64,000 bases of DNA. It comes from an uncultured delta proteobacterium. GTDB lineage: Bacteria; Desulfobacterota; Binatia; UBA9968. The notes under the pieces are model-generated. The model was not told the DNA's origin, searched no databases, and saw only the letters and a program-made list of their open reading frames with translations. Positions 3,032 through 29,826 of this stretch are shown one piece after another. The first letter of the stretch is position 1. Each line of letters starts with the position of its first letter. The stretch lies in NCBI GenBank assembly GCA_963771465.1, contig CAVYTU010000015.1, forward strand, positions 1,120,001-1,184,000, in the 5' to 3' direction. Position numbers and translations under genes: made by a program.

Positions 3032-3952
3032 TTATTTGCTGTGACCTTTGCCGTTGGTCAAGCCGTTGCTGCCGGCACCCCTGGCCGAAACAATCCCGCT
3101 GGTCGAAGCCGCGGCACCGCCGCCGCCGCTGACAATCCCGCTTTGTTGCATGCCATGGCTGTTGCCATGATCCTTGCCGGAAGCGCTGACGATTCCGTCG
3201 CCCGAGCCTTTTCCACTAGAGATTCCATGATCCGCGTTACCGTGCGATTTGCCGCTGCCGGATATAATGGCCGAACCGGATGATTTACCCGCCGAACCGC
3301 TTGTCGTTGTAACTTTGTTACCTTTAGACGACAGAGCTGCGGTCGTTATGCTCTGATTGGCGCTTTTCATGCCGCTCATGACCGGACCGAGCTTGTAGCC
3401 GAGTTTCTGCGCGATTTGGCCCCAGCCCATGTTTTGGCTGCGGAGCGTGAGTATTCCATCTAACTGGGTCGACGTCGTCACTGCGGTTGCTCCGGTGCCG
3501 GTCGTCTGTGTGATCGTGCCGCCGGTCAACGCCGCCTGTAGTTGTTGCGGCGTCGGTTGGGTAATGCCTAGACTGCTCAATTGCTGCTTGGCCAGCGCCA
3601 GCGAGATGTAGACGTTGCCGTGGCCCATATGGCCGGTCGGCGGTGTGATCACCGTTGCCGTCGTCGTAGTTGTCGGCAAGCCGCCCGGCGTAGTGCTCGG
3701 TACGGTGGTTGTGCGTGTCAATGTAATCGGAGTTCCGTTTCTGAGACCGGTGACGACCGTGGTGCTATCGGAGCCAAGAAAAGTATTGAAGTCGCCGGCG
3801 ATCTTGCCGGTGACCTTAGTTTCGCCATTGCTGGTCGCCAGGTTATTCATCGTCGTCGCCTGAGTGTTCAAGTCGCTGGTCAAATCCGCCCGCCCCAAGG
3901 CTGCCGTTCCCAAAACCATACCGACAGTCAATACCATTGCATGAGTCTTCAT
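3032..3952 (-). CDS. Secreted Thr/Gly/Ser-rich hypothetical protein
   Basis: GAGGAGG RBS, signal peptide, MGHGNV and MGWGQIA motifs, low-complexity G/S/H tail. Confidence 0.7.
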   Translation of the reverse strand: MKTHAMVLTVGMVLGTAALGRADLTSDLNTQATTMNNLATSNGETKVTGKIAGDFNTFLGSDSTTVVTGLRNGTPITLTRTTTVPSTTPGGLPTTTTTATVITPPTGHMGHGNVYISLALAKQQLSSLGITQPTPQQLQAALTGGTITQTTGTGATAVTTSTQLDGILTLRSQNMGWGQIAQKLGYKLGPVMSGMKSANQSITTAALSSKGNKVTTTSGSAGKSSGSAIISGSGKSHGNADHGISSGKGSGDGIVSASGKDHGNSHGMQQSGIVSGGGGAAASTSGIVSARGAGSNGLTNGKGHSK

Positions 3953-3978
3953 ATCGTTACCTCCTCGCAATCGAATTT

Positions 3979-4425
3979 TTAGCTTAGGCCCAAAACTTTC
4001 TCGGTCTGAATAATGATTTCCGTTGCAGTCGCCCGGTCTTTGAAAAAGATTCCTTGTTTCGCCACAGTCCGGATGCGCGTGGTTTTTGCGCTCACCATCT
4101 CCAGCTCAATCTCAATCTCGCGATCATTGGAAGTTGCCCGTATCGCTTTCCCCTGCTCGCTCTTCGCCGTGGAATCGACTTTGATACCCATGCGGTCGAG
4201 CGCAGTTCGAGTCGCGTTTTCTACCTGCGGCAGAGATGCCGTGAAGGTTCTGTAAGCAATGCCATCTAGGGTATAGGCCACTGAAGTGCCGGTGGCGACT
4301 CCCGCGCCAACACCGAAAAGCGTCATGCCCACGCCAACGCAACCGTTAAGCCACAGTGTTACGACTAGACTTAATGCGAGTAATCGAGTTTTTTGTTTCA
4401 CCATATGGCAGGTAGCCATAGGCAA
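3979..4425 (-). CDS. Lipoprotein, DUF3568-like (start may be ~4404)
   Basis: LNGC lipobox then Gly-rich hydrophobic segment and small alpha/beta domain. Confidence 0.65.
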   Translation of the reverse strand: MPMATCHMVKQKTRLLALSLVVTLWLNGCVGVGMTLFGVGAGVATGTSVAYTLDGIAYRTFTASLPQVENATRTALDRMGIKVDSTAKSEQGKAIRATSNDREIEIELEMVSAKTTRIRTVAKQGIFFKDRATATEIIIQTEKVLGLS

Positions 4426-4476
4426 TTAGCGAGCCAGCGAGCGCCGACGACCATTTCGCGGAACAGTACGCAGTTC

Positions 4477-4516
4477 TTGTCGATGGGACGGATTGCAATC
4501 CCCATCCCGCCGACAA
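4477..4516. terminator. Imperfect hairpin with perfect core palindrome GGATTGCAATCC (terminator of the F420 operon or an operator)
   Basis: TTGTCG...GGATTGCAATCC...CGACAA. Confidence 0.4.
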
Positions 4517-4573
4517 AAATGTTGAGCTGGCGGTAATTTCTACCTGGGAAAGATCAGCTTAAGCATGGCACGA

Positions 4574-5227
4574 CTAGTGGGGGGCGATGCCGGTGATCTT
4601 GATGCTGCCATGCTTGGACTTGTATTTGCGGTTGAGCGCGATGATCACACCGGTCAAGCCTTCGATCACATAGGCATTGCTCGCCGGACCACCGTCATAG
4701 GCCGTCGCGCCAATGCGGGCGATGATCTCCATCACTTTCTGCTTCGCCTCGGCGTTGTCGCCGCATACCAGCACGTCGCCGAGCGGCGCATCGACATCGC
4801 CCAAATCGACCGCGGAAATATTATGCAAGGCGCCGATCACCGGCGCTTCGTCGCCGATAATCTGCTGCGCTTCCTGAAGCGCCGAGCCGGCGGGCGGCAC
4901 AAACGGTTTGATTTTATTCAACGGCACCACGGTGTCGATGACGATCTTGCCGGCTAGTTGGCCTTTCAAATCCTGCACCATCTGCGCTTGGCCTTCGTAG
5001 GGCACGGCGATAACGACGAAGTTGGCGTCTTTCACCGCTTCCCGGTTGGTTGTGCCGATCATCTCGCCGGCGCGAAGACTCGGTTTCAAACTCTCCACCA
5101 CCTTCTTGGCCTTTTCCGCGTCGCGCGAGCCGATGATAATTTTTACTCCTGGGGCACCGAGACGGAGCGCTAAGGCGCTGCCCAAGTTTCCCGTGCCGCC
5201 GACGATAGCTACAGCCAAGTTTTCCAT
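4574..5227 (-). CDS. npdG: NADPH-dependent F420 reductase (F420H2:NADP+ oxidoreductase)
   Basis: GGTGNLG Rossmann motif, IGSR, AVPY, DTVVPL, GALHNISA; in cof operon. Confidence 0.9.
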   Translation of the reverse strand: MENLAVAIVGGTGNLGSALALRLGAPGVKIIIGSRDAEKAKKVVESLKPSLRAGEMIGTTNREAVKDANFVVIAVPYEGQAQMVQDLKGQLAGKIVIDTVVPLNKIKPFVPPAGSALQEAQQIIGDEAPVIGALHNISAVDLGDVDAPLGDVLVCGDNAEAKQKVMEIIARIGATAYDGGPASNAYVIEGLTGVIIALNRKYKSKHGSIKITGIAPH

Positions 5228-5239
5228 TTCATATTCGAT

Positions 5240-5992
5240 CTAGCGAAAAAGATCTTCCGCCTCGGGGCGCAAAAGCTCTTGCACTGATCCGTCCTCCTTT
5301 TTCTCTAATTGATATCCGCGCACGATCACGACGGGAACGCCGTCGCGCTTGCCCATGACCAACTCCGCCGCGGACGCGATCTCATCGGCGACCGCCGCCA
5401 CCGCAGCTTTCAATTGGTAGCCATGGCGATCCTTCAATCCGCGCTCGTCTTTAATCGGTTTCATGCCAGCCACACCCACTGCCACGTCCGCCGTGCCCAC
5501 ACGCCACGCCCGGCCGAAGCTGTCGCTGATGATCACACCGACGGATTTTCCCGTGCGGGTTTGAATTTCGCGGCGAATTTCCCGAGCCGAATGATCGGCA
5601 TCTTTCGGCAGCAACGCGACTTGTCCGAGACCGACATTGGACTGATCGACGCCGGCATTGGCGCAAACAAAACCCTGATGAGTTTCGACAATCAATGCAC
5701 GGCCGCCGCTACGAATCACTCTACGGCTCTCGCCGAGAATCACTTCGACCAGTTCAGCTTCCTTGGCCAATTCCCGAGCTAACTGGCGCGCTCGCTCGCT
5801 CGGTTTCACTCCGGCCAGCCGCACCATTCGGCCTTCGGCTTTGGAGATCACTTTCTGCGCCACCACCAACACATCATCATCCATCAACTCCATCCCTTGA
5901 CGCGCGCAGCCATCGCAGATTAGCGCGCCGATGGAGTCGCCGCTGTCAATCTCAGCGATTCCTTCGAGGCCAAATAGCTCCAGCCGTTTCAT
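5240..5992 (-). CDS. cofE: Coenzyme F420-0:L-glutamate ligase
   Basis: QKVISKAEGR, ANAGVDQSN, SDSFGRAWR; ATG overlaps cofC stop (ATGA). Confidence 0.93.
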   Translation of the reverse strand: MKRLELFGLEGIAEIDSGDSIGALICDGCARQGMELMDDDVLVVAQKVISKAEGRMVRLAGVKPSERARQLARELAKEAELVEVILGESRRVIRSGGRALIVETHQGFVCANAGVDQSNVGLGQVALLPKDADHSAREIRREIQTRTGKSVGVIISDSFGRAWRVGTADVAVGVAGMKPIKDERGLKDRHGYQLKAAVAAVADEIASAAELVMGKRDGVPVVIVRGYQLEKKEDGSVQELLRPEAEDLFR

Positions 5993-6678
5993 AAACCACC
6001 GGAACCGCGGCTCAACTCTGCGCCTTGTCGGCCCAAAAGCTCGCGCGCGACACGCGTCGAATCGCCGCCGGCGCAATCGTAGGAAAGGAACCGCTCAAGG
6101 TCCGCAGGCTCATCAATATCCAGCGCGATATGCTCATTTTCAAAGTAGCGCTGCGGCAGACCACTCTCGGTCACTTGCGCCGAATGAAAAGTGAAGCTGT
6201 CGTAACCGAAGCGTAGTTGAATCACATCCGGCGGCGCCAACAGCAAAGCGTTGGTTCCCAAGCGGTCATGAGAGGGCACGAGTAAAGCGAATGGCGCGCT
6301 CGCTCCGGGTGGAACTTGCGCGAGAACCTGTTCCACGTCGGTCGCGCTCGCCAACGGCATATCGCCGGGCAGAATCAGCACCGCTTCGCAACCCGCTTGC
6401 TTAAGCTCAAGCCGCGCGAAGTCGACCGCGCTGGTTTCTCCATTCTCGGCGCGCTCGCGCATCACTTCGGCACCGGCTGATGCAGCGATCGCAGCGACCC
6501 TATCGTCACCGGTGACGACAAACGTCGCGGTCAGTCCGCGCGCCAAGCGCACTTGGCGCAAAATATCGCGGAACATGGTTTCCGCCAATAACTCCCGCGC
6601 CGCGCTGCCCAACATCGGGCTAAGGCGTTGCTTGGCATTGCGAAATCCTTTTACAGGCATTAGTGCGGTGACGTTCAT
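5989..6678 (-). CDS. cofC: 2-phospho-L-lactate/PEP guanylyltransferase
   Basis: PVKGFRNAKQRL, PGDMPL, GTNALL, FGYDSF, LDIDEPADL. Confidence 0.92.
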   Translation of the reverse strand: MNVTALMPVKGFRNAKQRLSPMLGSAARELLAETMFRDILRQVRLARGLTATFVVTGDDRVAAIAASAGAEVMRERAENGETSAVDFARLELKQAGCEAVLILPGDMPLASATDVEQVLAQVPPGASAPFALLVPSHDRLGTNALLLAPPDVIQLRFGYDSFTFHSAQVTESGLPQRYFENEHIALDIDEPADLERFLSYDCAGGDSTRVARELLGRQGAELSRGSGGL

Positions 6679-6704
6679 GGCAAACCAGAAAGAATTTTTT
6701 TAGA

Positions 6705-7631
6705 CTATTTTCGCGCCAAGGCCAAGACCTCGCGCGCCAGCCGGCGCTTGTGAGCGAGATCGGGCATGCGAATGTCGGCAGTCACGGCACGAATCTTGAG
6801 TTGTTGAATCTCCGAAATCAGCTGTCGATCTTCGTCGGCAATGATCAACGTGTCGAGAAAATCGCGGTAACACTCGGCCACACCGCGTGCAGAAGCTTTG
6901 ACACCGCTAGCACTCATCAGCTTATGTGCCGGACCCGAGATTGCCGATCCACCGATAGTTGGGCTGACGCCGACAATCGCTGCGGCACTTTTGGCTAATG
7001 CTGAGCGCATTCCGGGAACGGCGAGAATCGGACCGATACTAGTGATCGGATTGCTCGGGCAAACGACGATCGCTTGGGCGTTAAGGATCGCGGTAATCAC
7101 ACCAGGCGCCGGTTGGCTATTCTCAGCGCCGGCGAAACGAACCGCGCTCACTTCCCGCGACCAACGCTCTTTGACAAAATATTCCTGGAAAGAAATCTCT
7201 CCCTGCGCCGTCGTCACGCAGGTTTCAACGCGGTCATCGGACATGGGTAAAATTGTCGATTGAACGCCGAGCACGCGGCGCATCCGCTCGGTGATCGCGC
7301 TCAGTTTGCCACCTTCCTTCAGCAACCGCGTGCGCGTAATATGCGTCGCCAAATCTTTATCGCCGAGATTGAACCACGCCTCGTTACCCAGTCGGCGCAG
7401 TTGCTCCAGTACGGCGAACGTATCACCGGCGATGCCCCAACCTTTGCCTGGATCGCTCAAGCCGGCAAGTGTGTAAGTAATCGTGTCGATGTCCGGCGAA
7501 ACGTAAAGTCCGTGCACGATCGCGTCGTCGCCGGTGTTGCAGATCACCGTCAGTTCAGCGGGATCGATTTCGGCGGCCAATCCTTCAACCAGCTTCGCCC
7601 CGCCGGTGCCGCCGCTAAGTGCGACGATCAT
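6705..7631 (-). CDS. cofD: 2-phospho-L-lactate transferase (LPPG:FO)
   Basis: LSGGTGGAKL, NTGDD, SPDIDT, FQEYFV, PSNPITSIGPIL. Confidence 0.93.
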   Translation of the reverse strand: MIVALSGGTGGAKLVEGLAAEIDPAELTVICNTGDDAIVHGLYVSPDIDTITYTLAGLSDPGKGWGIAGDTFAVLEQLRRLGNEAWFNLGDKDLATHITRTRLLKEGGKLSAITERMRRVLGVQSTILPMSDDRVETCVTTAQGEISFQEYFVKERWSREVSAVRFAGAENSQPAPGVITAILNAQAIVVCPSNPITSIGPILAVPGMRSALAKSAAAIVGVSPTIGGSAISGPAHKLMSASGVKASARGVAECYRDFLDTLIIADEDRQLISEIQQLKIRAVTADIRMPDLAHKRRLAREVLALARK

Positions 7632-8893
7632 GAAGTGAATTCCGCGGTCAATGAAGTGTTAGCGTGATCGGGTGAAGAAAAATTGCCCAGCGGACCGTTG
7701 TGCTTGACTAGCCCATCAGCGCCGCAAAGCGATTCAACAAGTGGTAACAACGCCGGCGCCAGGAATTTGTCGCCTTGATGAACGTATTCAGGATACACCG
7801 GCAGGCGCGCCCTAAGTTCGAAACCCGCTTTGGCGCTTTTTTGTTGTAAGATTTGTAATGCCGGCCACGGCGCTTCGGGGTTGATGAAGTCGGGCGTCAG
7901 CGGCGACACGCCGCCCCAGTCGTTAATCCCCGCGTCCAAATATAATTCATAGCCGTCCGGCGTCAGATTGGGCGGCGCTTGGATATTCATCGCGCCGCCG
8001 AGAATCAAACGCGCCAATGCGATCGTCTTCACCATGTCGTCTTTGCTCGCATGCGGATGCGACCGCATGGGGATCGTCGGCTTGGCGCGAAAGTTTTGCA
8101 CGATCACTTCTTGAATATGGCCGTAGCGCTGATGTAAATCGCGAATCGTCACCAGCGAGTCGATTCTCTCCTGCCAGTTCTCACCGATACCGATAAGGAT
8201 TCCGGTGGTGAACGGAATGTGCAATTCGCCGGCCAGCTGCAACGTTCGCAGCCGCGCCGCCGGCTTTTTGTCCGGCGCGTGGTTGTGCGCAGCGCCAGGC
8301 AAAAGCAAACGTTCGCTGACGCTTTCGAGCATCAGCCCCATGCTGGGGTTGAATTCTTTCAAGCGTTGCAAGTCGCTCCGGCCCATGACGCCAGGATTGG
8401 CGTGCGGCAGGAGCGCGGTTTCTTCCACGACGACGCGGCATGCTTCGAGCAGATAATCGAGGGTGCGCTGGTGGCCGCGCTCGGCCAAGAACTGTTTCAT
8501 CTCGGGGTAAATCGCTTCCGGCTTGTCGCCGAGGCTAAAAAGCACTTCCGTACAGCCGAGCGCTTTGCCTTGGCGCACCACGCGCAAAACTTCATCGAGG
8601 GTCATCGATTTGGCGCCCGGTTCATCCGGCGCCTTACGGAAAGTGCAGTAACCGCAGAAATCGCGGCACAGATTGGTCAACGGCACGAAAATCTTGGGCG
8701 AAAACGTGACCACCCGCCCTTTGTGCCGATCGCGGACCTCAGCGGCAAGCGAAAGCAACGAACCAAGTTGGTCGCCTTCAGCGTCAACCAGCGTAAGCGC
8801 GTCGCTGCGGCTCAGCGACTTTCCCTCACGACATGCGTTGAGTATCGCGTGCATCACCCTTGATTGAATATCGGATCGGTCCTGATCGGTCAA
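7628..8893 (-). CDS. cofG: FO synthase subunit CofG, radical SAM (start may be ~8854)
   Basis: LTNLCRDFCGYC, LPHANPG, PFTTGILIGIGE, QAPPNL, NDWGGVSP. Confidence 0.92.
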   Translation of the reverse strand: MTDQDRSDIQSRVMHAILNACREGKSLSRSDALTLVDAEGDQLGSLLSLAAEVRDRHKGRVVTFSPKIFVPLTNLCRDFCGYCTFRKAPDEPGAKSMTLDEVLRVVRQGKALGCTEVLFSLGDKPEAIYPEMKQFLAERGHQRTLDYLLEACRVVVEETALLPHANPGVMGRSDLQRLKEFNPSMGLMLESVSERLLLPGAAHNHAPDKKPAARLRTLQLAGELHIPFTTGILIGIGENWQERIDSLVTIRDLHQRYGHIQEVIVQNFRAKPTIPMRSHPHASKDDMVKTIALARLILGGAMNIQAPPNLTPDGYELYLDAGINDWGGVSPLTPDFINPEAPWPALQILQQKSAKAGFELRARLPVYPEYVHQGDKFLAPALLPLVESLCGADGLVKHNGPLGNFSSPDHANTSLTAEFTS

Positions 8894-8986
8894 TCAGCGG
8901 AATGCCCGGTCTTACGCTTGACAGCAGCACAGCCCATACCTATGCTCGGCGACAATCGAGTCAAAACAGCGCCGACGATTCATTTA

Positions 8987-10654
8987 ATGTCCGCCCATCC
9001 AAGCGCCGAGAAGTCCGCTGAACCCGTCATCAGCGCCGCGCAGCTGAAAAAGCACTACGCCGCCGGCGCGCGCCATTTCGCCGGCGCTCAGTTAGCCAAC
9101 GCAGATCTATCCGGATGCGATCTCCGCAACGTCAATCTCATCGACGCCGACTTGACCGCCGTTAATCTTGAGCACACCGATCTGCGCGATGCCAATCTTC
9201 AGGGCGCAACCTTGCTACGCGGCAAGCTGCGCGATGCCAATTTGGCAAACGCCGATCTCAGCCGCGCCGTCGGGCTGCTGCCGGCGCAACTCGCCGGCGC
9301 CAATCTCGCCGGCGCTCGTTTACCCGAGAAATTTGGCGACTTCGACGGCCTACGCGTCGTCGAGGAGGAATCGAAAAACGCCCGCACGCTGTTCTTCGGC
9401 ACGCTGCTCGCCTGCGTTTACGGCTGGCTCACCATCGCCGGTACCAGCGATGTATTGTTGCTCACCAACTCCGCCTCGTCGCCCCTGCCGATCATCGGCG
9501 CGGCCATTCCAATCGTCAGCTTTTACGTCGTCGGCCCGCTGATCTTGTTGTTGCTCTATATTTATCTCCATCTCCATTTGCAGCGCTTGTGGGAACGACT
9601 CGCCGACTTGCCGGCGGTGTTTCCTGATGGCCGTTCCCTTGGCAAGCGCGCCTATCCCTGGCTGCTCACCGGCCTGGTCTATTCCTACAATCCCTATCTT
9701 AAAGACCGCCGGCCGCCGCTGTCGCGTTTACAGTCCGCCGTGTCGCTGCTGATCGCCTGGTGGTTGGTGCCGCTGACGATCGCGATGTTTTGGCTGCGCT
9801 ACTTGCGCCGTCACGACTGGGTCGGTACGACACTCCATATCGCCGTGTTAGTCGCAGCCATCGGCGCGGCTGTCATCCTTTATCAGCTCGCCGTGTCGAC
9901 GCTGCGTGGCCAGCGCCGCAACGCCGTGCCACTCAGGAGCATGTTCGCCCATCGGCCGACCTATGTTCGCGGGCTATGGATCGCACTGCTCGCCGCCGCG
10001 ATTTATATTCTTTCATTGGGCGCCATCGACGGCGTGCCGCCGGAATACGAAGCCGCCGAAGGTGAAAAATCTTTAATCAATGCCGACGTCACTCCCACCG
10101 ACGTGCGCCGTTGGGTGCCACAACTGTTGCAGGCGCTCGGCAACAAAACCTTCGCCGACCTGCGCGAAGTCGATGTCTCGACGCGGCTGCAGAATTGGAA
10201 GGGCCAAGAAGAAGACGAGCTCGATCGGGTCAAGCGCGGCCGGCTGCGCGGCGCTCATTTGCGCTTCGCCGACGCCACCCGGGCATTTCTCGTCGGCGCG
10301 GATTTGAGCCGGGCCAATCTTCAGGGCAGCTATTTATTTCACGCCAATCTACGCGGCGCCGACCTGGCCTGGGCCGATTTGAAAGAATCCTTCGCTTATG
10401 AAGCCGATCTGCAGGGCGCCAATTTGCAAAATGCCGATCTGCGCGGCGTCGATTTTAGCGGCGCGAACTTAAGCGGTTCCAACCTCAAGGGCGCGCGCCT
10501 TGATAACGCGAATCTGGAAAATAGCAATTTGAACAAGACCAACCTTAGTGGTACGTCATTGGCGACAGTGAAGGGATTGACTGCTGGGCAACTTGCCGCG
10601 GCGCTTACAGACGACAGCACGCAGTTGCCAGATACGATGACGCGGACCAAATAG
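8987..10654 (+). CDS. Pentapeptide-repeat membrane protein
   Basis: A(D/N)Lxx repeats at both termini flanking about 5-6 hydrophobic helices; start uncertain (ORF open from 8864). Confidence 0.8.
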   Translation: MSAHPSAEKSAEPVISAAQLKKHYAAGARHFAGAQLANADLSGCDLRNVNLIDADLTAVNLEHTDLRDANLQGATLLRGKLRDANLANADLSRAVGLLPAQLAGANLAGARLPEKFGDFDGLRVVEEESKNARTLFFGTLLACVYGWLTIAGTSDVLLLTNSASSPLPIIGAAIPIVSFYVVGPLILLLLYIYLHLHLQRLWERLADLPAVFPDGRSLGKRAYPWLLTGLVYSYNPYLKDRRPPLSRLQSAVSLLIAWWLVPLTIAMFWLRYLRRHDWVGTTLHIAVLVAAIGAAVILYQLAVSTLRGQRRNAVPLRSMFAHRPTYVRGLWIALLAAAIYILSLGAIDGVPPEYEAAEGEKSLINADVTPTDVRRWVPQLLQALGNKTFADLREVDVSTRLQNWKGQEEDELDRVKRGRLRGAHLRFADATRAFLVGADLSRANLQGSYLFHANLRGADLAWADLKESFAYEADLQGANLQNADLRGVDFSGANLSGSNLKGARLDNANLENSNLNKTNLSGTSLATVKGLTAGQLAAALTDDSTQLPDTMTRTK

Positions 10655-20858: not shown

Positions 20859-21914
20859 CTAAGCGGCGAGCGCCGCCAACTCTTTCAACAACGCTTGCAC
20901 TTCCTTCGGAGTACCGACGGTAATGCGTAAGCAGTCGCGCAATTCCGCCGTGTCGAAATAACGCACCAAGATGTTTTTCTGCTTAAGTTCCTCATAAACC
21001 GGCTTTAAGTTCTGCTCTCGTTTGCGCGCCAAAACGAAATTGGCGTGCGATGGATAGACTTCATAGCCCAGCCGCTTGAGCCCCCGGGAAAGTATCGCGC
21101 GATTGCGTTGAATGCGCCCGGCGTTACGTTTCATCCATGCCATATCCTGCAAAGCCGCCATAGCCGCGACCATACTCAGACGATTTAAATTATAGGAATC
21201 TTTCACCTTCATCAGGCCGGCGATGATTTCCGCCGATGCGAAGGCCAAGCCGATACGCATGCCGGCAAGCGAAAAAGATTTGGAAAACGTCCGCATGACC
21301 ACCAGATTGGGAAGCTGGCGGATCAGCGGGATCGACGATGCCCCTTCGCTCGCGGCGAAGTCGACGTAGGCCTCGTCGACTACCAGGACGCCGCAAACCG
21401 CGTCAGCGAGCTTGACGATTTCCGCGAGCGTTACTAACGTCCCAGACGGCGCGTTGGGGTTACAGAGAAACGTCAGCGCGGCGTTTTGCTCGGCCAAAGT
21501 CTGTGGCAAAGAAAAATCCTCGGGGAAATCAACCCGCGCCGCCACGCCGTCTTGAATTTCTACCAAGGTATCGTAAAGCGAATAGGTTGGCACCGGAAAC
21601 GCCACTCGATCCCGCTGCCCCACAAAGCAGCGCAGCAACATCGACAAGATCTCATCCGAGCCGTTTCCGGCGATGATATTGTCCGGCTTGACTCCGTATA
21701 CGCTGCCGGCGAGCGTCCGCAAGCTATCGCTCAAAGGCTCGGGATAGAGCCGTAACGAGGGATTGATGGCTTTTCTTAAAGCCGCAAACACTTTCGGCGA
21801 GGGCGGATAGGGATTTTCATTGGTGTTGAGCTTGATGATGCCATTGTCGCGGGGCTGTTCGCCCGGCGTGTAGCCGTACATAGCATCAATGTTTGCGCGG
21901 AAGTATTTTGACAT
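20859..21914 (-). CDS. hisC: Histidinol-phosphate aminotransferase
   Basis: KLNTNENPY, GNGSDE, NPNAPSG, VDEAY, RTFSKSFSLAGMRIG. Confidence 0.93.
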   Translation of the reverse strand: MSKYFRANIDAMYGYTPGEQPRDNGIIKLNTNENPYPPSPKVFAALRKAINPSLRLYPEPLSDSLRTLAGSVYGVKPDNIIAGNGSDEILSMLLRCFVGQRDRVAFPVPTYSLYDTLVEIQDGVAARVDFPEDFSLPQTLAEQNAALTFLCNPNAPSGTLVTLAEIVKLADAVCGVLVVDEAYVDFAASEGASSIPLIRQLPNLVVMRTFSKSFSLAGMRIGLAFASAEIIAGLMKVKDSYNLNRLSMVAAMAALQDMAWMKRNAGRIQRNRAILSRGLKRLGYEVYPSHANFVLARKREQNLKPVYEELKQKNILVRYFDTAELRDCLRITVGTPKEVQALLKELAALAA

Positions 21915-22148
21915 GGGGCCCGGATTTTAACGACAGGCAGTTCCGTTTTCAATCAATAACGAGCTAACAACGGTACAGCCAAGCTGGCAATTAAGGAATA
22001 GTAAAGAATTTTAACCAGTATCGAGACATTTTTGTCCATGCTTTCCGGATATTGTCCAAAAATCCTTCTTAGAGCACACATTGGCGCGTAATGACGCATT
22101 AACTTCGTTTGTAAATAGTCGATATTGCACAGGTCCCGTTTTTTCCAG

Positions 22149-22164
22149 TGGCATGTTTTTGGCT
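22149..22164 (+). promoter_or_regulatory. Sigma54-like -24/-12 promoter (TGGCATGTTTTTGGCT)
   Basis: GG-N10-GC with TGGCA; about 80 nt upstream of the coiled-coil gene in an AT-richer spacer; -12 is TGGC rather than TTGC. Confidence 0.5.
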
Positions 22165-22242
22165 AGATGCATCGCAATTGACCGAGCCGGGTACGGATCA
22201 AAGTAGCGATCCGTCCAGACCAACGCTCGGACGGGGTAAGTA

Positions 22243-25200
22243 ATGGACCAAAGCAGTTTTAGCAATAGCGATCCGTCGATTCTCTTGCTCAACGAGATTG
22301 AGATCCTGCTGGCGCAGACCCGGCTCATGGAACTCTATCTCAAACAGGCCCAAGCCACAGCGGCCAATGAAGCCGCACGGGTCACTAAACAGCACCACGC
22401 CGAACTAACTACTTTGCGTGCCGCCCTGGCGGAAAAAGAAAATGTTGCACCGATTGTCGCGCCCGATCCCGAGCTCATTCAGCGGCTAGAAACCGTTGAA
22501 TCCGAGCTCGGCGCAAATCAACTGCTGCTCAGCCAGCGCAATCACGAGCTTGCCAGCGCGCAAGCGGATGCGGCAAGACTGCATGGCGAAATCGCCGAAC
22601 TGGAGATCGCGCGCCAGCTAGCTCAAACCGCCGCGCTCGAATCCACTAGAGCGGGGGAGAGTTTACAAACCGAACTGGCAACCCTACGCCAGGAGCTTGA
22701 AACCAAGCGGCATGAGTTCGCCGAACAGCAGCGCGATGCGCGGCAAATTGAGCACGGTCTGCGCCAGCACGTGACGCAACTACAGGGGGAGCTAAACGAC
22801 AAACAGAGCTGGTCGCAGAATGCGACTAACGAACTGGCGCAGAGCCGCAACGATATCGCCGCCTTGCGCGCGCGCGTCGCGGAGCTGGAGTCGCGCCGTC
22901 AGGAAGCGCAAAGCAGCGCGGCCCAAGAGCTCGAGCAGACGCGCGCGCGCTTCGAAGCGGAACTGGGCGAGTTGCGCACGGCACTGGGCGCCCGCTCGGA
23001 GGCCGAACAACACAGCCAAGCGGCACTCGTCCAGATCGAAGGAAATCTTAAGAGCGAGATTCTCACTCTCAAGAACCAACTTGAGCAAAAACAGCAGCAG
23101 CTCGTAAGCCGAGACGCCGATTGGCGCCAGACGCAAAGCGATCTCGCTGCGCTCAATCGGCACGTCGCCGAGCTCGACGAGGCCAATCGCCAAGCTGCGG
23201 TGGACGCAGCAGCGTTCGAAAAAGCCAAGCAATCCTACGAAACTGAGCTCGCCGAGCTGCATCACGAGATCGCGGTCAAAGAACGCGAACTGACGCAGCG
23301 CTATGAGGCCGTCACGGCGGTCGAGCTGGCCTTACATGGCAAAATTCAAGCCCTGCAGCACGATTTAGCGCGGAGCCACCATGAGCGCGCTAGCCAAGAA
23401 AGCGAACTCGACCAGGCCCGCGATGAAATCGCCAAGTTAGCCGCCCATGTTCGCGAGCTCGAAAGTGCCCGCGAGCAAGCCGAGTCGGTCGGCATGCGCG
23501 TCACCGAGGAAACCCGTCAGCGCCTCGAAGCCGAGCTGAACCGCCTGCACGCTTCCCTGGCGCAAAAGGAATATGCGCTCAAAGAACGGGAAAATGGCTA
23601 CAAAGCTCTCCAAGACCGGCTCACCGAGGAATCGCAGCAGTTAAGAAACCAGCTGGAAGAACAGCAAAAAAGTTTTGCCGCCGCCCATGCCGAACTGACT
23701 CTCGCGCAAGCTAAAATCGCCGCGCTCCAAGACGAGAGCAGCGCGCGCGACCGGGAACGCCAACAGGCCGAGGAAAACTGGCAGCGCTCCGGGATAATTC
23801 AGAAGGAACTGCAAGAACGCTTGCAAGCGCGCGGCGAAGAGCTGCAAGGCGCAAAGACCGCCGCGGACCAGCTGAAAGAACAGCTCCATAGCCAGCTCAA
23901 TGAGCTGCAATTGGAGCTAGCCCACAAACAGCTGTTGGCCGACAGCCGCGGCGCTGAAGTAAGCAATCTCCAGGATAATCTAGCTCAACTGGCGGAACAG
24001 CTAGCCCAAGTGGAATCGGGCCAGCACCAATCGGCGTCACGGCTGCGCGACGCGGAAGAGAGCCGGGCCGCACACCAGAACGAACTTACGGCGCTCAACG
24101 AAACTTACCGTCAGCAATTCCAGGCTTTGGAAAACCAACTCCAACGAGAGCAGGCGAATGCCGACGAGCTGCGCCATCTCGTTCAAGCGTTAGAGCGCCT
24201 AGCGAACCAGCGTGAAACCGAGGTCAATGAGAAAAGTCAGAGCCTCGACAGCGCAAAGATAGAAACGAGCAGCCTGCAGTCCCGCCTGGTTGCATTGGAA
24301 AGCCAACTCGCCCAAGAACGGGCGAGCACAAATCATTTGCATCTGCAGATTCAAGAGGTGGAGCGCTTGGCGAGCGAGCGCGAAACCGCACTGGACGAAA
24401 AAAGTTCCAGCCTTGACAGCATGCGCGCGCAGGCGAGCGCCGACCAGACTCGCCTGCATGAGCTCGAAAGCCAACTGAAAAAGCACCAGGCCGATGCCGG
24501 AGAAATCGAGCAAGCCCATAGCGCATTGGCGAGCGAGATCGATTCCCTGCGCCAGGAACTCCAAAGAAAAACCTGGGCCCTCGCCCAGCAGCAAGCGTCC
24601 GTCGAAAACCTCGCCCTCGCCCACAGAGAACAGATTCACAAGCTTGAAGGCCAACTCCATGAACAGCGCAGCAGCGCCACGGCGCACACGGGCGAGCTTG
24701 AAAATGCCCACGCGCAAGCCGAGACTTTGCGCCGGCGCATCGAAGAACTAGAAACCGCGCTGCGCCATGCCGAGATCGCGGCGCTGAGTCGCGCTGAGGA
24801 GTTGCTGCAGGAACATGCCGCACGGGATCAAGAGTTGACAACGGCGCTGCAGCAAAAAAGCTCCGAGGTCGAAGAACGCGGCGCGGCACAGACGCGACTG
24901 GAACAATCGTTACACGCGGAAATCGAGCGTCTGGTGCGCGAAGTCCAAGAGCGAAATCAGATATTGCAAAACCGCAACGACGAGCTGGTCCGGGTCAAAG
25001 CCGAGATGGATACCCTCCATGAACGGTTCACTCAACTGGAATTGTCAGCGGCGCAGTCCGACGCCGCTGCGCAGAACGAGTCCGAGCACATGCGCACGGA
25101 ATTTCAAGCCCAGCTCGCCTTACTGCAAGCCGAGCTCAGTCAAAAAGAGTGGGCCTTGGAAGAACGCCATGCGGTGGCAAGCGGCACGGAACAGGCGCTG

Positions 25201-25437
25201 CGCCAAGAAATCGACACGCTGCGCACCCAACTCGCGTCCCAGGCGAAAGTCAGCGAACGGGATGCCGACGCGTTTGTCATCGGCGACAGGGAGCTTAACC
25301 CGACACAACGGGAACACGCGGCAAATCTACATGAGATAAGCGATGGCGTCGACACCGGCGCATCGAGCTCCATGTCCGATGCACAGCAACGCCGCTGGCG
25401 CACCGGTTTCGCTTGGAAGCGGCGGTGGAAGGCGTAG
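22243..25437 (+). CDS. 1064-aa repetitive coiled-coil protein
   Basis: E/Q/A/L-rich heptads throughout, ~95-aa internal periodicity, no Walker motifs, basic Trp-rich C-terminus. Confidence 0.85.
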   Translation: MDQSSFSNSDPSILLLNEIEILLAQTRLMELYLKQAQATAANEAARVTKQHHAELTTLRAALAEKENVAPIVAPDPELIQRLETVESELGANQLLLSQRNHELASAQADAARLHGEIAELEIARQLAQTAALESTRAGESLQTELATLRQELETKRHEFAEQQRDARQIEHGLRQHVTQLQGELNDKQSWSQNATNELAQSRNDIAALRARVAELESRRQEAQSSAAQELEQTRARFEAELGELRTALGARSEAEQHSQAALVQIEGNLKSEILTLKNQLEQKQQQLVSRDADWRQTQSDLAALNRHVAELDEANRQAAVDAAAFEKAKQSYETELAELHHEIAVKERELTQRYEAVTAVELALHGKIQALQHDLARSHHERASQESELDQARDEIAKLAAHVRELESAREQAESVGMRVTEETRQRLEAELNRLHASLAQKEYALKERENGYKALQDRLTEESQQLRNQLEEQQKSFAAAHAELTLAQAKIAALQDESSARDRERQQAEENWQRSGIIQKELQERLQARGEELQGAKTAADQLKEQLHSQLNELQLELAHKQLLADSRGAEVSNLQDNLAQLAEQLAQVESGQHQSASRLRDAEESRAAHQNELTALNETYRQQFQALENQLQREQANADELRHLVQALERLANQRETEVNEKSQSLDSAKIETSSLQSRLVALESQLAQERASTNHLHLQIQEVERLASERETALDEKSSSLDSMRAQASADQTRLHELESQLKKHQADAGEIEQAHSALASEIDSLRQELQRKTWALAQQQASVENLALAHREQIHKLEGQLHEQRSSATAHTGELENAHAQAETLRRRIEELETALRHAEIAALSRAEELLQEHAARDQELTTALQQKSSEVEERGAAQTRLEQSLHAEIERLVREVQERNQILQNRNDELVRVKAEMDTLHERFTQLELSAAQSDAAAQNESEHMRTEFQAQLALLQAELSQKEWALEERHAVASGTEQALRQEIDTLRTQLASQAKVSERDADAFVIGDRELNPTQREHAANLHEISDGVDTGASSSMSDAQQRRWRTGFAWKRRWKA

Positions 25438-25533
25438 AACGTTTTTAATATCGGCAGCCACCACGATGGCAGTACCAACTGACGCTTCGGGAGTGCGGGT
25501 TGCAACAGGCAGTGTGTTTGAGAAGGGAAAGCG

Positions 25534-26256
25534 ATGACTAAGACAGAACGCGTATCCACGGGTATCAGCGGACTTGACCCGTTTCTCGAAGGCGGATTTC
25601 CCAAAGGCCGGTCGATACTTGTGACTGGAGACCCGGGCACGGGGAAAACGATCTTCGCGCTGCAATTTCTTTTCGAAGGACTGAAGCACGGCGAAAAAGG
25701 CATCTTCGTCACTGCCGACGAGAGTCCCATGGACATCATCGAGCAAGGCGCGTCGATCGGCTGGGATTTGGAACCCTACATCGAGAGCAAAGAGTTGGCG
25801 ATCTTGAACGCCGGCGCCTACTTGAGCTCGCTGCCGAGCAACGGCAAAGATCGCCAAGTCGACGTTCAAAAAGCGATGAGCGATCTCGCCGGTTTCGTCG
25901 AACAGATCGGCGCCGAGCGGATGGTGCTCGATCCCGCCGGACCCTTTGTTCTGCTGCGCGATTCCGCTGCCCGTATCCAAGATCAGACGCGGCTGCTGAT
26001 CAAGCTTTTGCGCTCATCGATGAAGACGACCAACATTCTGACCTCCTACGCCGTGCCGCGCACGGGCGAGCGTTCGCTGCACGGCATCGAAGAATATCTC
26101 GTCGCCGGCGCCATCGTGCTGGAAATGATCTGGAAACAAGGCGATCTGGCGCGCAGTCTGATCGTCGAAAAAATGCGCTACACCGACGTCAAGCCCAAGC
26201 AGTTGGAATTCGATATCGTCAAAGGTCAAGGCATTACGCTGACGCCCTTCGACTGA
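25534..26256 (+). CDS. KaiC/RAD55-like single-domain ATPase
   Basis: STGISGLD, GGFP, GDPGTGKT, GIEEYL, IVEKMR. Confidence 0.88.
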   Translation: MTKTERVSTGISGLDPFLEGGFPKGRSILVTGDPGTGKTIFALQFLFEGLKHGEKGIFVTADESPMDIIEQGASIGWDLEPYIESKELAILNAGAYLSSLPSNGKDRQVDVQKAMSDLAGFVEQIGAERMVLDPAGPFVLLRDSAARIQDQTRLLIKLLRSSMKTTNILTSYAVPRTGERSLHGIEEYLVAGAIVLEMIWKQGDLARSLIVEKMRYTDVKPKQLEFDIVKGQGITLTPFD

Positions 26257-26283
26257 TCTGGCACTACGTAAATTATTGATCGA

Positions 26284-27069
26284 ATGACAAATCAACGCAT
26301 TTCTACGGGAATTGCCGGGCTCGACTCCTTGCTTCATGGCGGCTTCGTCAGGGGGCGCACCTATATTTTTACCGGCGACACCGGCAGCGGCAAAACCATC
26401 GCCTGTTTACAAATGCTCCAAGGCGCGCTGGCCGCCGGTGAAAAGGCGGTGTACGTCACGGTCGACGAACGGCCATCGGAAATCACCGATTCGGCGGCGG
26501 CGTTCGGCTGGAACCTCCAACCCCATATCCAAGATAAGAATTTGGCGATCCTAGATGCTTCACCCTATTTCAGCGGTCGATCACCGAGTGCCGGCGAGAA
26601 GGGCATCGACCCGCAGAAGATCGTCGCCGACTTGGGCAACTATGTAAGGCGGTTGAGCGCGACCCTACTGGTCATCGACCCTGTGACGCCGTTTATTTTG
26701 CCAAACGACGCCACCAGCCCGGCGCAAGACCAAGCGCGCGCCTTGATCAATTTATTGCAAACCCAACTGACCACGACCAATTTGTTGACGGCGCACTTCT
26801 CCAGCCGCGCCGATCAAGATCAGACCTGCGGCATTGAAGAGTTTTTGGCCTCCGGAGCTTTTTATCTAAAAATCGACAACAGCGCCGGCCAAGTTCAGCG
26901 CACATTAGCGATCCGCAAAATGCGCGGCACACCGGTGATGCCGGGCGATCATCATTTCGAAATGACAACCGCCGCCGGCATCGTCATCGCCAATCAGGGT
27001 TCCGCAAAGGTCTCGCCCCAGGAGGGCGCCAACCCGGTGTTTGAGTATTTCGAGCTTCCCAAGAAATAG
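26284..27069 (+). CDS. KaiC/RAD55-like single-domain ATPase
   Basis: STGIAGLD, GDTGSGKT, GIEEFL, AIRKMRGT. Confidence 0.88.
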   Translation: MTNQRISTGIAGLDSLLHGGFVRGRTYIFTGDTGSGKTIACLQMLQGALAAGEKAVYVTVDERPSEITDSAAAFGWNLQPHIQDKNLAILDASPYFSGRSPSAGEKGIDPQKIVADLGNYVRRLSATLLVIDPVTPFILPNDATSPAQDQARALINLLQTQLTTTNLLTAHFSSRADQDQTCGIEEFLASGAFYLKIDNSAGQVQRTLAIRKMRGTPVMPGDHHFEMTTAAGIVIANQGSAKVSPQEGANPVFEYFELPKK

Positions 27070-27145
27070 GCGGACGGCGATGATCTGAATCGCCGCACGA
27101 CCCACTCGCTATTGAGCCGATTTCCCGCCCTGCGCCAGCGCTTTC

Positions 27146-27174
27146 TTGACACCTCCCATTACGATGCTTAACTT
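27146..27174 (+). promoter_or_regulatory. Sigma70-like promoter for clpB
   Basis: TTGACA-N17-TAACTT. Confidence 0.5.
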
Positions 27175-27198
27175 CCCTGCACAGGCGGGGGAAATGCG

Positions 27199-29826
27199 AT
27201 GCGTTTAGATAAACTTACGACCAAATCACAGGAAGCGCTGCAGCAAGCGCAAACTCTTGCCGACAAGCGCAGTCACCAAGCGGTCGACGTCGAACATCTA
27301 TTGTTCGCGCTGCTAGGACAGAAGGAAGGCGTCGTTCTCGCGCTGCTGCAAAAACTCGGCGTGCCGCTCAACCCATTGACGGATAAGCTGCAAAAAGCCC
27401 TCGACCGTCTGCCGCAAGTCACCGGCGCAACCGGCCAAAGCTACATTACGCCACGGCTGAAAAAAGTCATCGAGAGCGCGGAAGCCGAAGCCGAGGCATT
27501 GAAAGACGAATATGTGTCCACCGAGCATTTGCTTCTCGCCATGGCGCAAGAGAGCGGCGACGCCGGTAAGATGCTCAAAGAGCTCGGCGCCGGCAAAGAC
27601 AAGATTTTGAATGCCCTCGTCAGCATTCGCGGCTCCCAGCGCATTACCGATCCCAATCCGGAAGAAAAGTATCAAGCGCTCGAAAAATACGGCCGCGATC
27701 TCACCGATCTGGCGCGTAAAGGGAAACTCGATCCGGTGATCGGCCGCGACGACGAAATCCGCCGCGTCATCCAAGTGCTGTCGCGCCGGACCAAGAATAA
27801 CCCCGTGCTGATCGGCGAGCCGGGCGTCGGCAAAACCGCCATCGTCGAAGGCTTGGCGCTACGCATCGTCAACGGCGACGTACCTGAAGGATTGAAAGAT
27901 AAAAAACTCATTGCGCTGGATCTCGGCGCTCTGGTCGCCGGGGCAAAATTCCGCGGCGAATTCGAAGACCGGCTCAAAGCCGTGCTCAAGGAAGTCACCG
28001 AAGCGAGCGGCGAGATCGTTCTGTTCATCGACGAGCTGCACACCTTGGTCGGCGCCGGCGCCGCTGAAGGCGCCATGGACGCGTCGAACATGCTCAAGCC
28101 GGCGCTCGCCCGTGGCGAGCTGCGCTGTGTCGGCGCGACCACGCTCGATGAATACCGTAAAAAAGTCGAGAAAGACCCGGCGCTGGAGCGGCGCTTTCAG
28201 CAAGTCTACGTCGGCGAACCTTCGGTCGAAGACACCATCGCGATTCTCCGCGGCTTGAAAGAACGCTACGAAGTGCATCATGGCGTGCGCATCACCGACG
28301 GCGCGATCATCGGCGCCGCGACATTGTCGCAGCGCTATATCAGCGACCGTTTCTTGCCCGACAAAGCAATCGATCTGATCGACGAAGCGGCGTCGCGGCT
28401 GAGAATCGAAATCGATAGCATGCCGCTGGAAATCGACGAGGTCGAACGCAAAATCATGCAGATGGAAATCGAGCGCCAAGCGCTCAAGCGTGAAGAGGAC
28501 AAAGCGTCCCAACAGCGTCTCGCCCAGCTCGAGCGGGAAATTCAAAATCTGAAGGAAACCTCAAGGGGCCTCAAGGCGCACTGGCAAAATGAAAAGGCGT
28601 CGATCCAACAGCTGCGCGAGCTCAAAGAAAAGATCGAGGCGACCAAAGTCGAAGAGCAAAAGGCGCAGCGGGACGGCAATCTGAACCGCGCCGCCGAATT
28701 GCGCTACGGTACGCTCAACCAGCTGCAAAAAGAGCTTGAGGACGCTAATCAAAAACTCATTGAGCTGCAGAAAAATCAAAAGATGCTCAAAGAAGAAGTT
28801 GACGCCGAAGACGTCGCCGAAGTGGTCGCCAAGTGGACGGGCATCCCGGTTGCGAAAATGCTCGAAGGCGAAGTGCAGAAACTTCTGACCATGGAAGACC
28901 GACTCAAACTTCGCGTCATCGGCCAGGACAGCGCGATCCACGCCGTGTCCAATGCCGTGCGCCGCGCGCGGGCGGGATTGCAGGATAGCAATCGGCCGAT
29001 TGGCTCATTCATTTTTCTCGGGCCAACCGGCGTCGGTAAAACTGAACTTTGCCGCGCGCTAGCGGAGTTCTTGTTCGACGACGAGCAGGCGATCGTCCGC
29101 CTGGATATGTCGGAGTACATGGAGAAACACTCCGTGTCGCGCTTGCTCGGCGCGCCTCCCGGCTACGTCGGCTACGATGAAGGCGGGCAATTGACCGAAG
29201 CGGTGCGCCGCCGGCCCTACTCCGTCGTCTTGTTCGACGAGATTGAAAAGGCTCATCCGGATGTCTTCAATGCGCTTTTGCAGGTGCTCGAAGACGGGCG
29301 GATGACCGACGGCCAAGGCCGCACCGTCGATTTCAAGAACACCGTCATCATCATGACTTCCAATCTCGGCAGTCAATTTATCCAAGAGCTCGGCGCAAAA
29401 GACCGCAAGGAAATGGAGCAGCGCGTCACTGCCGCTTTGCGCGAAGCCTTCAAGCCGGAGTTTTTGAATCGCGTCGATGAAACGATTATCTTCAGCAACC
29501 TCGGCCGTGATGAGATCAAGTCGATCGTCGAAATCCAGCTGAAACGTTTGCGCCGGAATCTCGCTAATCGCAAGTTGTTATTGGAAATCACCGAGCAAGC
29601 CAAGGCGCTGCTCGCCGACAAGGGCTACGATCCGGCGTACGGCGCCCGCCCGCTCAAGCGAACCATCCAACGACTGATTCAGGATCCGCTGGCGGTTAAG
29701 ATTCTCGCCGGAGAATTCAAAGAGGGCGACCGGGTAAAAATCGATGTTGACAATGACGAGCTAAACTTCAGCCGTGGCCAAGCGGCGGCGCCGGATGAAA
29801 CTTACGAGCAAAGGACGATCCATTGA
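27199..29826 (+). CDS. clpB: ATP-dependent chaperone ClpB
   Basis: GEPGVGKT and GPTGVGKT, long coiled-coil M domain, GAPPGYVG. Confidence 0.97.

Follow-up and report, generated by a model that had tools for sequence, protein, structure and literature searches.

A putative sigma-54-activated locus of single-domain KaiC-like ATPases and a coiled-coil protein in an uncultured bacterium of the Binatia

KaiC-family ATPases are, to our knowledge, widespread outside the cyanobacteria, and almost none of them has a known job. What can such proteins do when they are encoded directly behind a long coiled-coil protein, as they are in an uncultured delta proteobacterium belonging to the Desulfobacterota (Binatia; UBA9968)? 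The window, that is, the whole stretch of 64,000 nucleotides that was analysed, belongs to contig C15 of a 6.9-Mb assembly which is 99.4% complete (GCA_963771465.1; CAVYTU010000015.1, positions 1,120,001 to 1,184,000), and positions given without a contig name are those of the window. The coiled-coil protein, CC, is encoded at 22243-25437 (plus strand, 1064 aa), the first ATPase, K1, at 25534-26256 (plus strand, 240 aa) and the second, K2, at 26284-27069 (plus strand, 261 aa), with gaps of 96 nt between CC and K1 and 27 nt between K1 and K2. K1 is a tail-less, single-domain ATPase like the first domain (CI) of KaiC, and K2 is a paralogue of the same type with a C-terminal extension. The coordinates of the open reading frames (ORFs) bear out the original prediction of three co-oriented genes of these lengths between hisC and clpB. 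The reading that we favour, tentatively and with a little less than even confidence, is that the locus encodes a sigma-54-activated signalling module of CI-like ATPases, whose ring acts on the coiled-coil partner.

The first question is how the locus is controlled. A sigma-54-like promoter had been predicted, and conservation bears it out: a -24/-12 element of this type, TGGCATGTTTTTGGCT, is situated at 22149-22164 on the plus strand, ends 79 nt before the ATG of CC and fits the consensus save for one base in the -12 element. Its GG and GC are invariant in all nine aligned orthologous hisC-CC spacers, which are otherwise poorly conserved (mean identity 54%), and the -24/-12 pattern is present in every one of the 16 genome-contig loci that include the spacer. 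In addition, the genome encodes RpoN (one Sigma54_DBD match, E 4e-63) and sigma-54 activators (27 Sigma54_activat matches at E<=1e-20). Further upstream, at 22025-22058 on the plus strand, a block conserved in the nine aligned spacers consists of GACATTTTTGTCCA followed by a second TTGTCCA, with the TGTCCA copies at -116 and -96 relative to the -24 element; it is a candidate upstream activator site, to which an enhancer-binding protein would bind. The paired form upstream of CC is unique in the genome. The genome contains 22 TGGCAYG-N4-TNGCW sites, against about three expected by chance on a rough estimate, and the variant TGGCAYRTWTTTGGCT is found only twice in the 6.9 Mb, namely before CC and before a second coiled-coil gene, CC2. 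Both copies have TGTCCA 88-116 nt upstream (at -88 in the case of CC2), and a genome-wide search for the upstream TGTCCA pair gave no promoter beyond those of CC and CC2. The confinement of the variant to these two genes, each with TGTCCA, argues for one activator with a two-operon regulon; no gene for an enhancer-binding protein was found in the window or in the chemotaxis (che) cluster next to CC2.

CC2 lies outside the window and directly precedes a third KaiC-like paralogue, K3 (C15:683016-683681, 227 aa). The CC2 protein has 639 aa, is coiled-coil-like by composition (rich in A, E, L, Q, R and K) and belongs to no Pfam family. The CC2-K3 pair is present in six of the seven loci from other genomes of the genus, in which CC2 is 537-664 aa long; genome G015 lacks CC2. 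TGGCAT(A/G)TATTTGGCT stands before CC2 in seven of seven loci, and TGTCCA lies about 90 nt further upstream. CC2 has conserved ends of its own, and profile-profile comparison of CC with CC2 detected no similarity (probability 6.7% for the N-termini and 1.4% for the C-termini). Two independent pairings of a coiled-coil gene with an ATPase gene under one promoter type make a functional tie between the two kinds of protein likely. In locus L032 (C15:683016-698517) CC2-K3 diverges from a complete che cluster, in which CheD, a CheA-CheW fusion and an HPt domain were assigned by Pfam, and CheY, CheW, methyl-accepting chemotaxis proteins, CheR, CheB and a second CheY by ORF order and N-terminal sequences. 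Since neither FliG nor flagellin has a match in the 99.4% complete genome, this chemosensory system probably controls something other than flagella; T2SSE-type ATPases have six matches in the genome.

How constant, then, is the association of CC with its ATPases? A profile of the C-terminus of CC, searched in 185,579 species genomes, gave 20 loci, all of them from this lineage as judged by gene order and by the identities of hisC, K1 and clpB. K1 follows CC directly in all 19 loci that have downstream DNA, so K1 is an invariant member of the module. K2 follows K1 in 15 of the 19, and in the remaining four, G015 among them, K2 is missing and clpB comes directly after K1. The synteny of the triplet in relatives, by which the original prediction was to be judged, is therefore partial: the CC-K1 pair stood in 19/19 loci, but K2 is present in only 15/19 and CC is absent or reduced to about 95 aa in some relatives, so an obligate triplet or an obligate heteromer of the two ATPases does not hold. 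What did gain support is the proposed functional tie between coiled coil and ATPase, backed by the CC-K1 adjacency and by the second, non-homologous coiled-coil gene before K3 with the same rare promoter variant. The range of the module is narrow. K1-like genes (E<=1e-40) were found in two of 401 genomes sampled evenly across the phylum, both in the family of the window's organism; within the genus sample a K1 orthologue of at least 72% identity is present in 19 of 24 genomes, including the fragmented G020 and the unpublished G005, and the five genomes without it are 65-97% complete. Two of the loci call for comment of their own. In L026 (G022:C6, about 3100-7900) a 255-aa ORF is what remains of CC, no hisC turned up within 8 kb upstream of it, and the ORFs in this stretch resemble an inserted mobile element, possibly with integrase-type genes, by reading of the sequences. 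In L027 (G019:C13) recD2, clpB and K2 are broken into short frames, which looks like frameshift errors of the assembly and not like decay.

The origin of the ATPases can be read from sister lineages. In two genomes of a sister family (G029 and G031) and one of a sister genus (G331), hisC is adjoined by a K protein of 235-240 aa, a fusion of a receiver (REC) domain with a KaiC-like domain, and a hybrid histidine kinase. The fusion keeps Walker A, has a D-D acidic pair and is missing the K-M-R arginine; the kinase, according to Pfam scans of G029 and G331, carries REC and HATPase_c, together with PAS in G029 and HisKA in G331. In G331 clpB comes next after the module, which therefore occupies the same site, between hisC and clpB, as the locus of the window; in G029 and G031 the module adjoins hisC, but clpB does not come after it. 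Two metagenome contigs with otherwise different genes, L065 and L066, also have a K protein followed by a REC-KaiC-like fusion. The presence of K protein, REC-KaiC-like fusion and kinase at the same site indicates that the ATPase comes from a two-component-type signalling module. KaiC-like proteins have been proposed to be 'signal transduction hubs' in archaea (Makarova, Galperin and Koonin 2017, mBio 8:e01959-17, as summarised in PMC5847659), and according to the same summary they occur with lineage-specific partners including REC fusions and inactivated KaiC-like domains (PMC5847659). Furthermore, Pseudomonas KaiC homologues are reported to act with a kinase and a response regulator in stress resistance (bioRxiv 10.1101/2022.01.26.477890). 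The sister-lineage module fits both the hub view and the Pseudomonas network of KaiC, kinase and regulator. A further metagenome contig (L067:2472-4112) has a K-clade ATPase divergent from a REC-PAS-DUF835 protein, another receiver-type neighbour.

What kind of ATPases are K1 and K2? Both match the KaiC domain of PF06745 over its whole length (K1, 201.1 bits, E 2e-59; K2, 181.0 bits, E 3e-53; gathering score 26.6), and both fall below the cut-offs of the named families, namely KaiC of TIGR02655 (96.2 and 105.2 bits against an equivalog cut-off of 546), KaiC of PRK09302 (138.5 and 123.7 bits against 408) and ArlH/FlaH of NF052589 (50.2 and 43.3 bits against 215). GvpD of PF07088 (cut-off 24 bits) is matched by K1 with 22.3 bits over 29 residues only and not by K2; scans of the window and the genome gave no flagellar or archaellum context for K1 and K2, and the window has no archaellum or gvp genes. 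The closest relatives of K1 in the PDB are KaiC proteins, of which the first domain is matched with 125 bits and the second with 39; in K2, too, the match to the first domain is by far the stronger of the two. The next-best solved relatives are the archaeal single-domain proteins PH0186, PH0284 and SSO2452 (E 2e-39 to 1e-30). The AlphaFold2 model of K2, with a mean predicted local distance difference test (pLDDT) score of 81, a confident core (residues 1-238) and a disordered end (239-261), is nearest to crystal structures of KaiC CI (template modelling score 0.88-0.91, normalised to the target).

The Walker A sequences of the two ATPases are GDPGTGKT and GDTGSGKT, and the catalytic residues are K38, D62-E63, D133 and R215 in K1 and K37, D61-E62, D132 and R214 in K2. 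These residues are invariant or nearly so over 19-53 aligned sequences, and every K1, K2 and K3 protein has Walker A, D-E, Walker B and K-M-R intact. By their residues, K1 and K2 would thus be active ATPases of the RecA superfamily. The alignment agrees with the predicted intact Walker A and K-M-R motifs and with the GIEE(Y/F) motif in both proteins. The two deviations from canonical KaiC that had been pointed out, DE instead of EE and D-P at Walker B, are likewise present in both, but they are not special to the pair, because they run through the whole single-domain clade; D-P at Walker B also occurs in the second domain (CII) of the two-domain KaiC of the same genome. The C-terminal extension of K2 ends in the motif FEYFELPKK (27040-27066, plus strand), for which alignments give the consensus hydrophobic-E-x-F/W-E/Q-x-P after a variable linker. 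This motif is disordered in the monomer model and is common to stand-alone Kx proteins of the sister genomes. It is also kept in L076, a locus without CC; CC is consequently not its sole possible partner.

A search with K1 of 1.84 billion protein representatives gave 10687 matches at E<=0.001, of which only 207 reached E<=1e-30. A FastTree tree was built from 248 domain rows, namely the separated domains of representatives with 200 aa or more, the K proteins of the loci and the organism's own KaiC; the three REC-KaiC-like fusions are absent from it, as they have no domain match of at least 150 profile positions. Local support is 100 for K1, 98 for K2, 95 for K3 and 98 for the sister-lineage K proteins, and all of these form one clade of 37 rows (support 99), nested in a clade of 63 rows which consists exclusively of single-domain proteins (support 99) and is placed among first-domain (CI-type) sequences. 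This surrounding single-domain KaiC-like clade is uncharacterised. Source annotations, like the cluster names of ten clade representatives, go no further than 'ATPase domain-containing protein' or 'circadian clock protein KaiC'. Several members of the wider single-domain clade (P0134, P0138, P0145 and P0151) bear N-terminal CxxC...CxxC zinc-ribbon-like extensions, another lineage-specific add-on.

The phylogeny of the ATPases against KaiC CI and CII, which the original prediction had asked for, thus groups both among the CI-type domains. The pair had also been called a split KaiC, and this idea finds no support, because by PDB matches, tree and structure match K1 and K2 are both paralogues of the CI-like type, neither of them being a CII half, and because K2 is dispensable in some species. 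A KaiC-type timer, be it an hourglass or a clock, assembled from two separate half-proteins would draw on the fact that KaiC is the closest characterised family; it is nevertheless very improbable, since neither ATPase is CII-like, both remain far below the KaiC equivalog cut-off of 408 bits (with scores of 138.5 and 123.7) and four of the 19 species do without K2. Moreover, as had been noticed before, no kaiA, kaiB, kinase or flagellar genes adjoin the locus; none of these, and no receiver gene, is present among the 54 window ORFs that were scanned. The genome has a two-domain KaiC homologue of its own at C13:201519-202892, in a 661-aa open frame (PF06745, 238 bits for CI and 135 bits for CII), and the frame just upstream of it reads like the start of a KaiB, so the organism may have a separate KaiBC system. 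The earlier verdict 'not a clock' accordingly stands, on the single-domain build, the absence of an adjoining kaiB and the two-domain KaiC elsewhere in the genome. As a separate observation, fragmented KaiC-domain matches in four pieces and different frames (C17:825890-827279, minus strand) may represent a decayed KaiC-like gene, near which a sigma-54-type site lies at C17:829200 on the plus strand.

What is CC? The protein falls into no Pfam family, and in a Fourier analysis of residues 61-960 its hydrophobic residues recur most strongly every 3.53 positions, as in a heptad coiled coil. CC had been called a giant repeat protein, and of this a weak form is left: the autocorrelation has a peak at 191 residues, but Tandem Repeats Finder gave no rows for the gene and self-BLAST no off-diagonal hits. 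The orthologues are 529-1685 aa long and 34-38% identical, and conservation is found at the ends. An N-terminal helix motif, SDPxILLLNEI(D/E)ILLAQTRLMELYLKQAQA (22270-22377, plus strand), has a mean column identity of 63% in nine orthologues. The last helix of the rod, LLQAELSQKEWALEER... (25090-25266, plus strand), is conserved in the alignment, and in the AlphaFold2 model of a 115-residue C-terminal piece one helix spans residues 2-59, and its block means of pLDDT stay at about 90 or above as far as residue 50. The Arg/Trp-rich C-terminal tail RRWxxGFxWKRRWK (25387-25434, plus strand) has a net charge of +5 to +8 and no structure in the model, and its R-R-W and K-R-R-W are unchanged in all 10 orthologues. 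Among metagenome relatives, L083 has a CC of only 244 aa with both ends, including the N-terminal motif, L069 has a mini CC of about 95 aa in which only the tail is retained, and L076 has K1 and K2 without CC. This series of lengths (0, about 95, 244 and 529-1685 aa) indicates that the rod behaves as a variable spacer, that the tail is the constant part and that CC is accessory. Similarity to known scaffold proteins is slight: the 244-aa relative gives a sub-threshold match to the crescentin rod (21.5 bits against 100), and a protein atlas search with CC residues 930-1064 led to generic coiled-coil clusters, all below 0.9, with crescentin-rod clusters at 0.82.

A long coil beside RecA-like ATPases might also be read as a system for DNA repair, chromosome organisation or phage defence, after the manner of Rad50/SMC, Wadjet or Lamassu. 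CC does match the coils of SMC, Rad50, JetC and LmuB models, all below threshold (best 60 bits against cut-offs of at least 567), K1 has weak matches to RecA, RadA and DnaB, and recD2 is located 3.4 kb upstream of the locus. But CC lacks an ABC ATPase head, a hinge and a nuclease domain, and every match falls inside the coiled-coil region; the K proteins are without zinc finger, Lon or DNA-binding domain; the locus occupies a stable core position amid housekeeping genes and is not in an island; and PADLOC gives no significant defence family (E-values of 2e-5 or weaker, with no separate stretch). This explanation is hardly to be believed.

Putting these observations together, the signalling module acting on CC would work as follows. 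The operon would be lineage-specific and would need sigma-54 together with an enhancer-binding protein, and its core would be K1, usually accompanied by its paralogue K2. The two ATPases would form nucleotide-dependent rings like other members of the family and serve as a switch rather than a clock or motor. The ancestral unit would have been K protein, REC-KaiC-like fusion and hybrid histidine kinase, of which the receiver and the kinase would have been replaced by CC in this genus. The rod of CC would be a spacer between the conserved N-terminal helix and the Arg/Trp tail, and the ATPase ring would bind or gate this tether, most likely via the tail; the flexible FxxF-type tail of K2 may dock on a ring subunit or on another partner. 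CC-K1-K2 would be co-regulated with CC2-K3 beside the chemosensory cluster. Taken with the absence of FliG and flagellin matches from the genome, this points to a signal-dependent role in the organisation or localisation of a cell structure. Gene content, family, phylogeny, promoter conservation and synteny are what the analysis shows; the formation of rings and the biological output are what we infer.

Several points weigh against this reading. A contact of any K protein with CC is itself something we infer; the score of 0.00 from a complex prediction for the N-terminal and C-terminal pieces of CC with K1 as the scored partner counts neither for it nor against it. In L076, where CC is absent, the same promoter stands 157 nt before K1, so the ATPases can work without CC, and the absence of K2 from 4 of 19 species means that a K1/K2 heteromer is not obligatory. 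The tail of CC could bind a membrane or nucleic acid rather than an ATPase; as an amphipathic helix it was tried and rejected, because the hydrophobic moments of six tails (0.21-0.45) are not above those of shuffled sequences. A docking motif common to CC and CC2 is not demonstrated by the profiles. The supports of the tree are local SH-like values only, the contigs from RNA libraries that match the locus may contain DNA and from them starts or single transcripts are not readable, and the conserved site beside clpB makes a link to proteostasis conceivable.

Some of these points favour another explanation, in which CC and the ATPases are co-transcribed and act apart, K1 and K2 being a free-standing signalling pair and CC an independent, sigma-54-induced structural coiled coil, intermediate-filament-like or membrane-tethering. 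K1-K2 behind the same promoter without CC in L076, the unconstrained length of CC, the lack of homology between CC and CC2 and a tail whose charge (+5 to +8) would be compatible with binding to anionic membranes or nucleic acid all fit with it. It would leave unexplained, however, why K1 adjoins CC in 19/19 loci and why a second coiled-coil gene precedes K3 in this genome and in 6/7 genus loci with the same rare promoter variant, for chance pairing twice is unlikely. We regard independent action as rather unlikely, though it is the rival to be taken most seriously. On the other side of the favoured reading, a bolder version of it would unite both operons in a small sigma-54 regulon that encodes a scaffold system of a new kind, in which ATPase rings dock the conserved ends of tethers of adjustable length, ATP binding or hydrolysis switches attachment or assembly, and the whole is the cellular output of a chemosensory pathway in a genome that gave no FliG or flagellin match. 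We consider this version unlikely; if true, its proteins would be the first of the KaiC family acting on the bacterial cytoskeleton.

Does the neighbouring chaperone gene have a part in the function? The downstream neighbour of K2, clpB, lies at 27199-29826 on the plus strand after a gap of 129 nt, and the upstream neighbour, hisC, at 20859-21914 on the minus strand, divergent from CC and 328 nt away from it. No terminator-like sites were found on the plus strand from 21800 to 27300. DNA nearly identical to that of the locus occurs in soil and rhizosphere metagenome runs from 14 studies, and the locus is matched at 99% or more by contigs from three soil RNA libraries, which belong to three studies. 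Of these pieces, one (25403-25586) covers the stop of CC and the start of K1, and another extends from K2 into clpB. As evidence of expression these contigs are a weak hint only, and the parts of the locus without them are not taken as silent. In a stress or proteostasis module tied to ClpB, the ATPases would sense stress or culture age and the operon would read into clpB. The K locus does stand directly before clpB both in the genus and in G331, a contig crosses the gap, and Pseudomonas KaiC homologues are reported to act in stress resistance (bioRxiv 10.1101/2022.01.26.477890). On the other hand, by reading, the 129-nt gap contains TTGACA-17-TAACTT, from which clpB may be transcribed separately; that a contig crosses two genes is no proof of a single transcript; the K modules of G029 and G031 have no clpB after them; and CC2-K3 is not beside a chaperone. 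Such a module is, on balance, improbable.

The rest of the window consists of housekeeping and transport genes (F420 biosynthesis, recD2, a CNNM/CBS transporter, MFS pumps, haem synthesis and ABC transporters). A pentapeptide-repeat protein of 596 aa (8864-10654) adjoins the F420 set (CofC, CofD, F420 ligase and radical SAM).

How do the proteins compare with known systems? With KaiC CI (PDB 4TL7, 4TLB and others) K1 and K2 share about 30-40% identity, the RecA-type fold, Walker A, the acidic pair, Walker B, GIEE(Y/F) and the K-x-R arginine finger; unlike KaiC, they have one domain, D-E instead of E-E and no CII phosphosites, they have no KaiA or KaiB partners, and they belong to a different operon under sigma-54 control. 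The archaeal proteins PH0186, PH0284 and SSO2452 are likewise single-domain and KaiC-like and, in summary accounts, have lineage-specific partners, but K1 and K2 are bacterial, form a separate clade, have a long coiled-coil partner and are under sigma-54 control. In the archaellum, ArlH/FlaH has the coiled-coil ring protein ArlX/FlaX and the motor ATPase ArlI as partners. It too is a single-domain KaiC-like ATPase, from which the K proteins differ by their scores below the cut-off, their bacterial host and the absence of archaellum genes. The KaiC homologues of Pseudomonas are taken to be two-domain proteins. They are reported as bacterial KaiC-family proteins wired to two-component proteins in a non-clock role, the same theme as in the sister-lineage loci, whereas K1 and K2 are single-domain and their two-component partners are gone in this genus. 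CC, for its part, resembles crescentin, FilP/Scy and FrzS/AglZ (Myxococcus) in its long heptad coil, variable length and short conserved ends, which are scaffold properties, but it has no significant sequence relation to them, and we know of none of these scaffolds that is paired with a KaiC-like ATPase. A switch-like action on a macromolecular assembly, dependent on nucleotide and phosphorylation, is reported for ArlH/FlaH (bioRxiv 10.1101/2021.03.19.436134). Literature searches at the level of listings and abstracts gave no KaiC-like ATPase with a coiled-coil partner or under sigma-54 control. KaiC-like signalling ATPases with lineage-specific partners are already known, and the variant with coiled coil and sigma-54 is narrow in range.

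What, finally, does the locus mean for the family? It is a compact and testable case, with a narrow CI-like clade, ancestral partners that can be read from sister lineages and one promoter type. In addition, the lengths of CC found in nature run from 0 to about 1685 aa while the tail does not vary, and so amount to a natural experiment on the roles of rod and tail. If the ATPases act on the coiled coil, the KaiC family would be linked to bacterial cell organisation; if they do not, the locus would still illustrate cleanly how a signalling ATPase module can exchange its partners.

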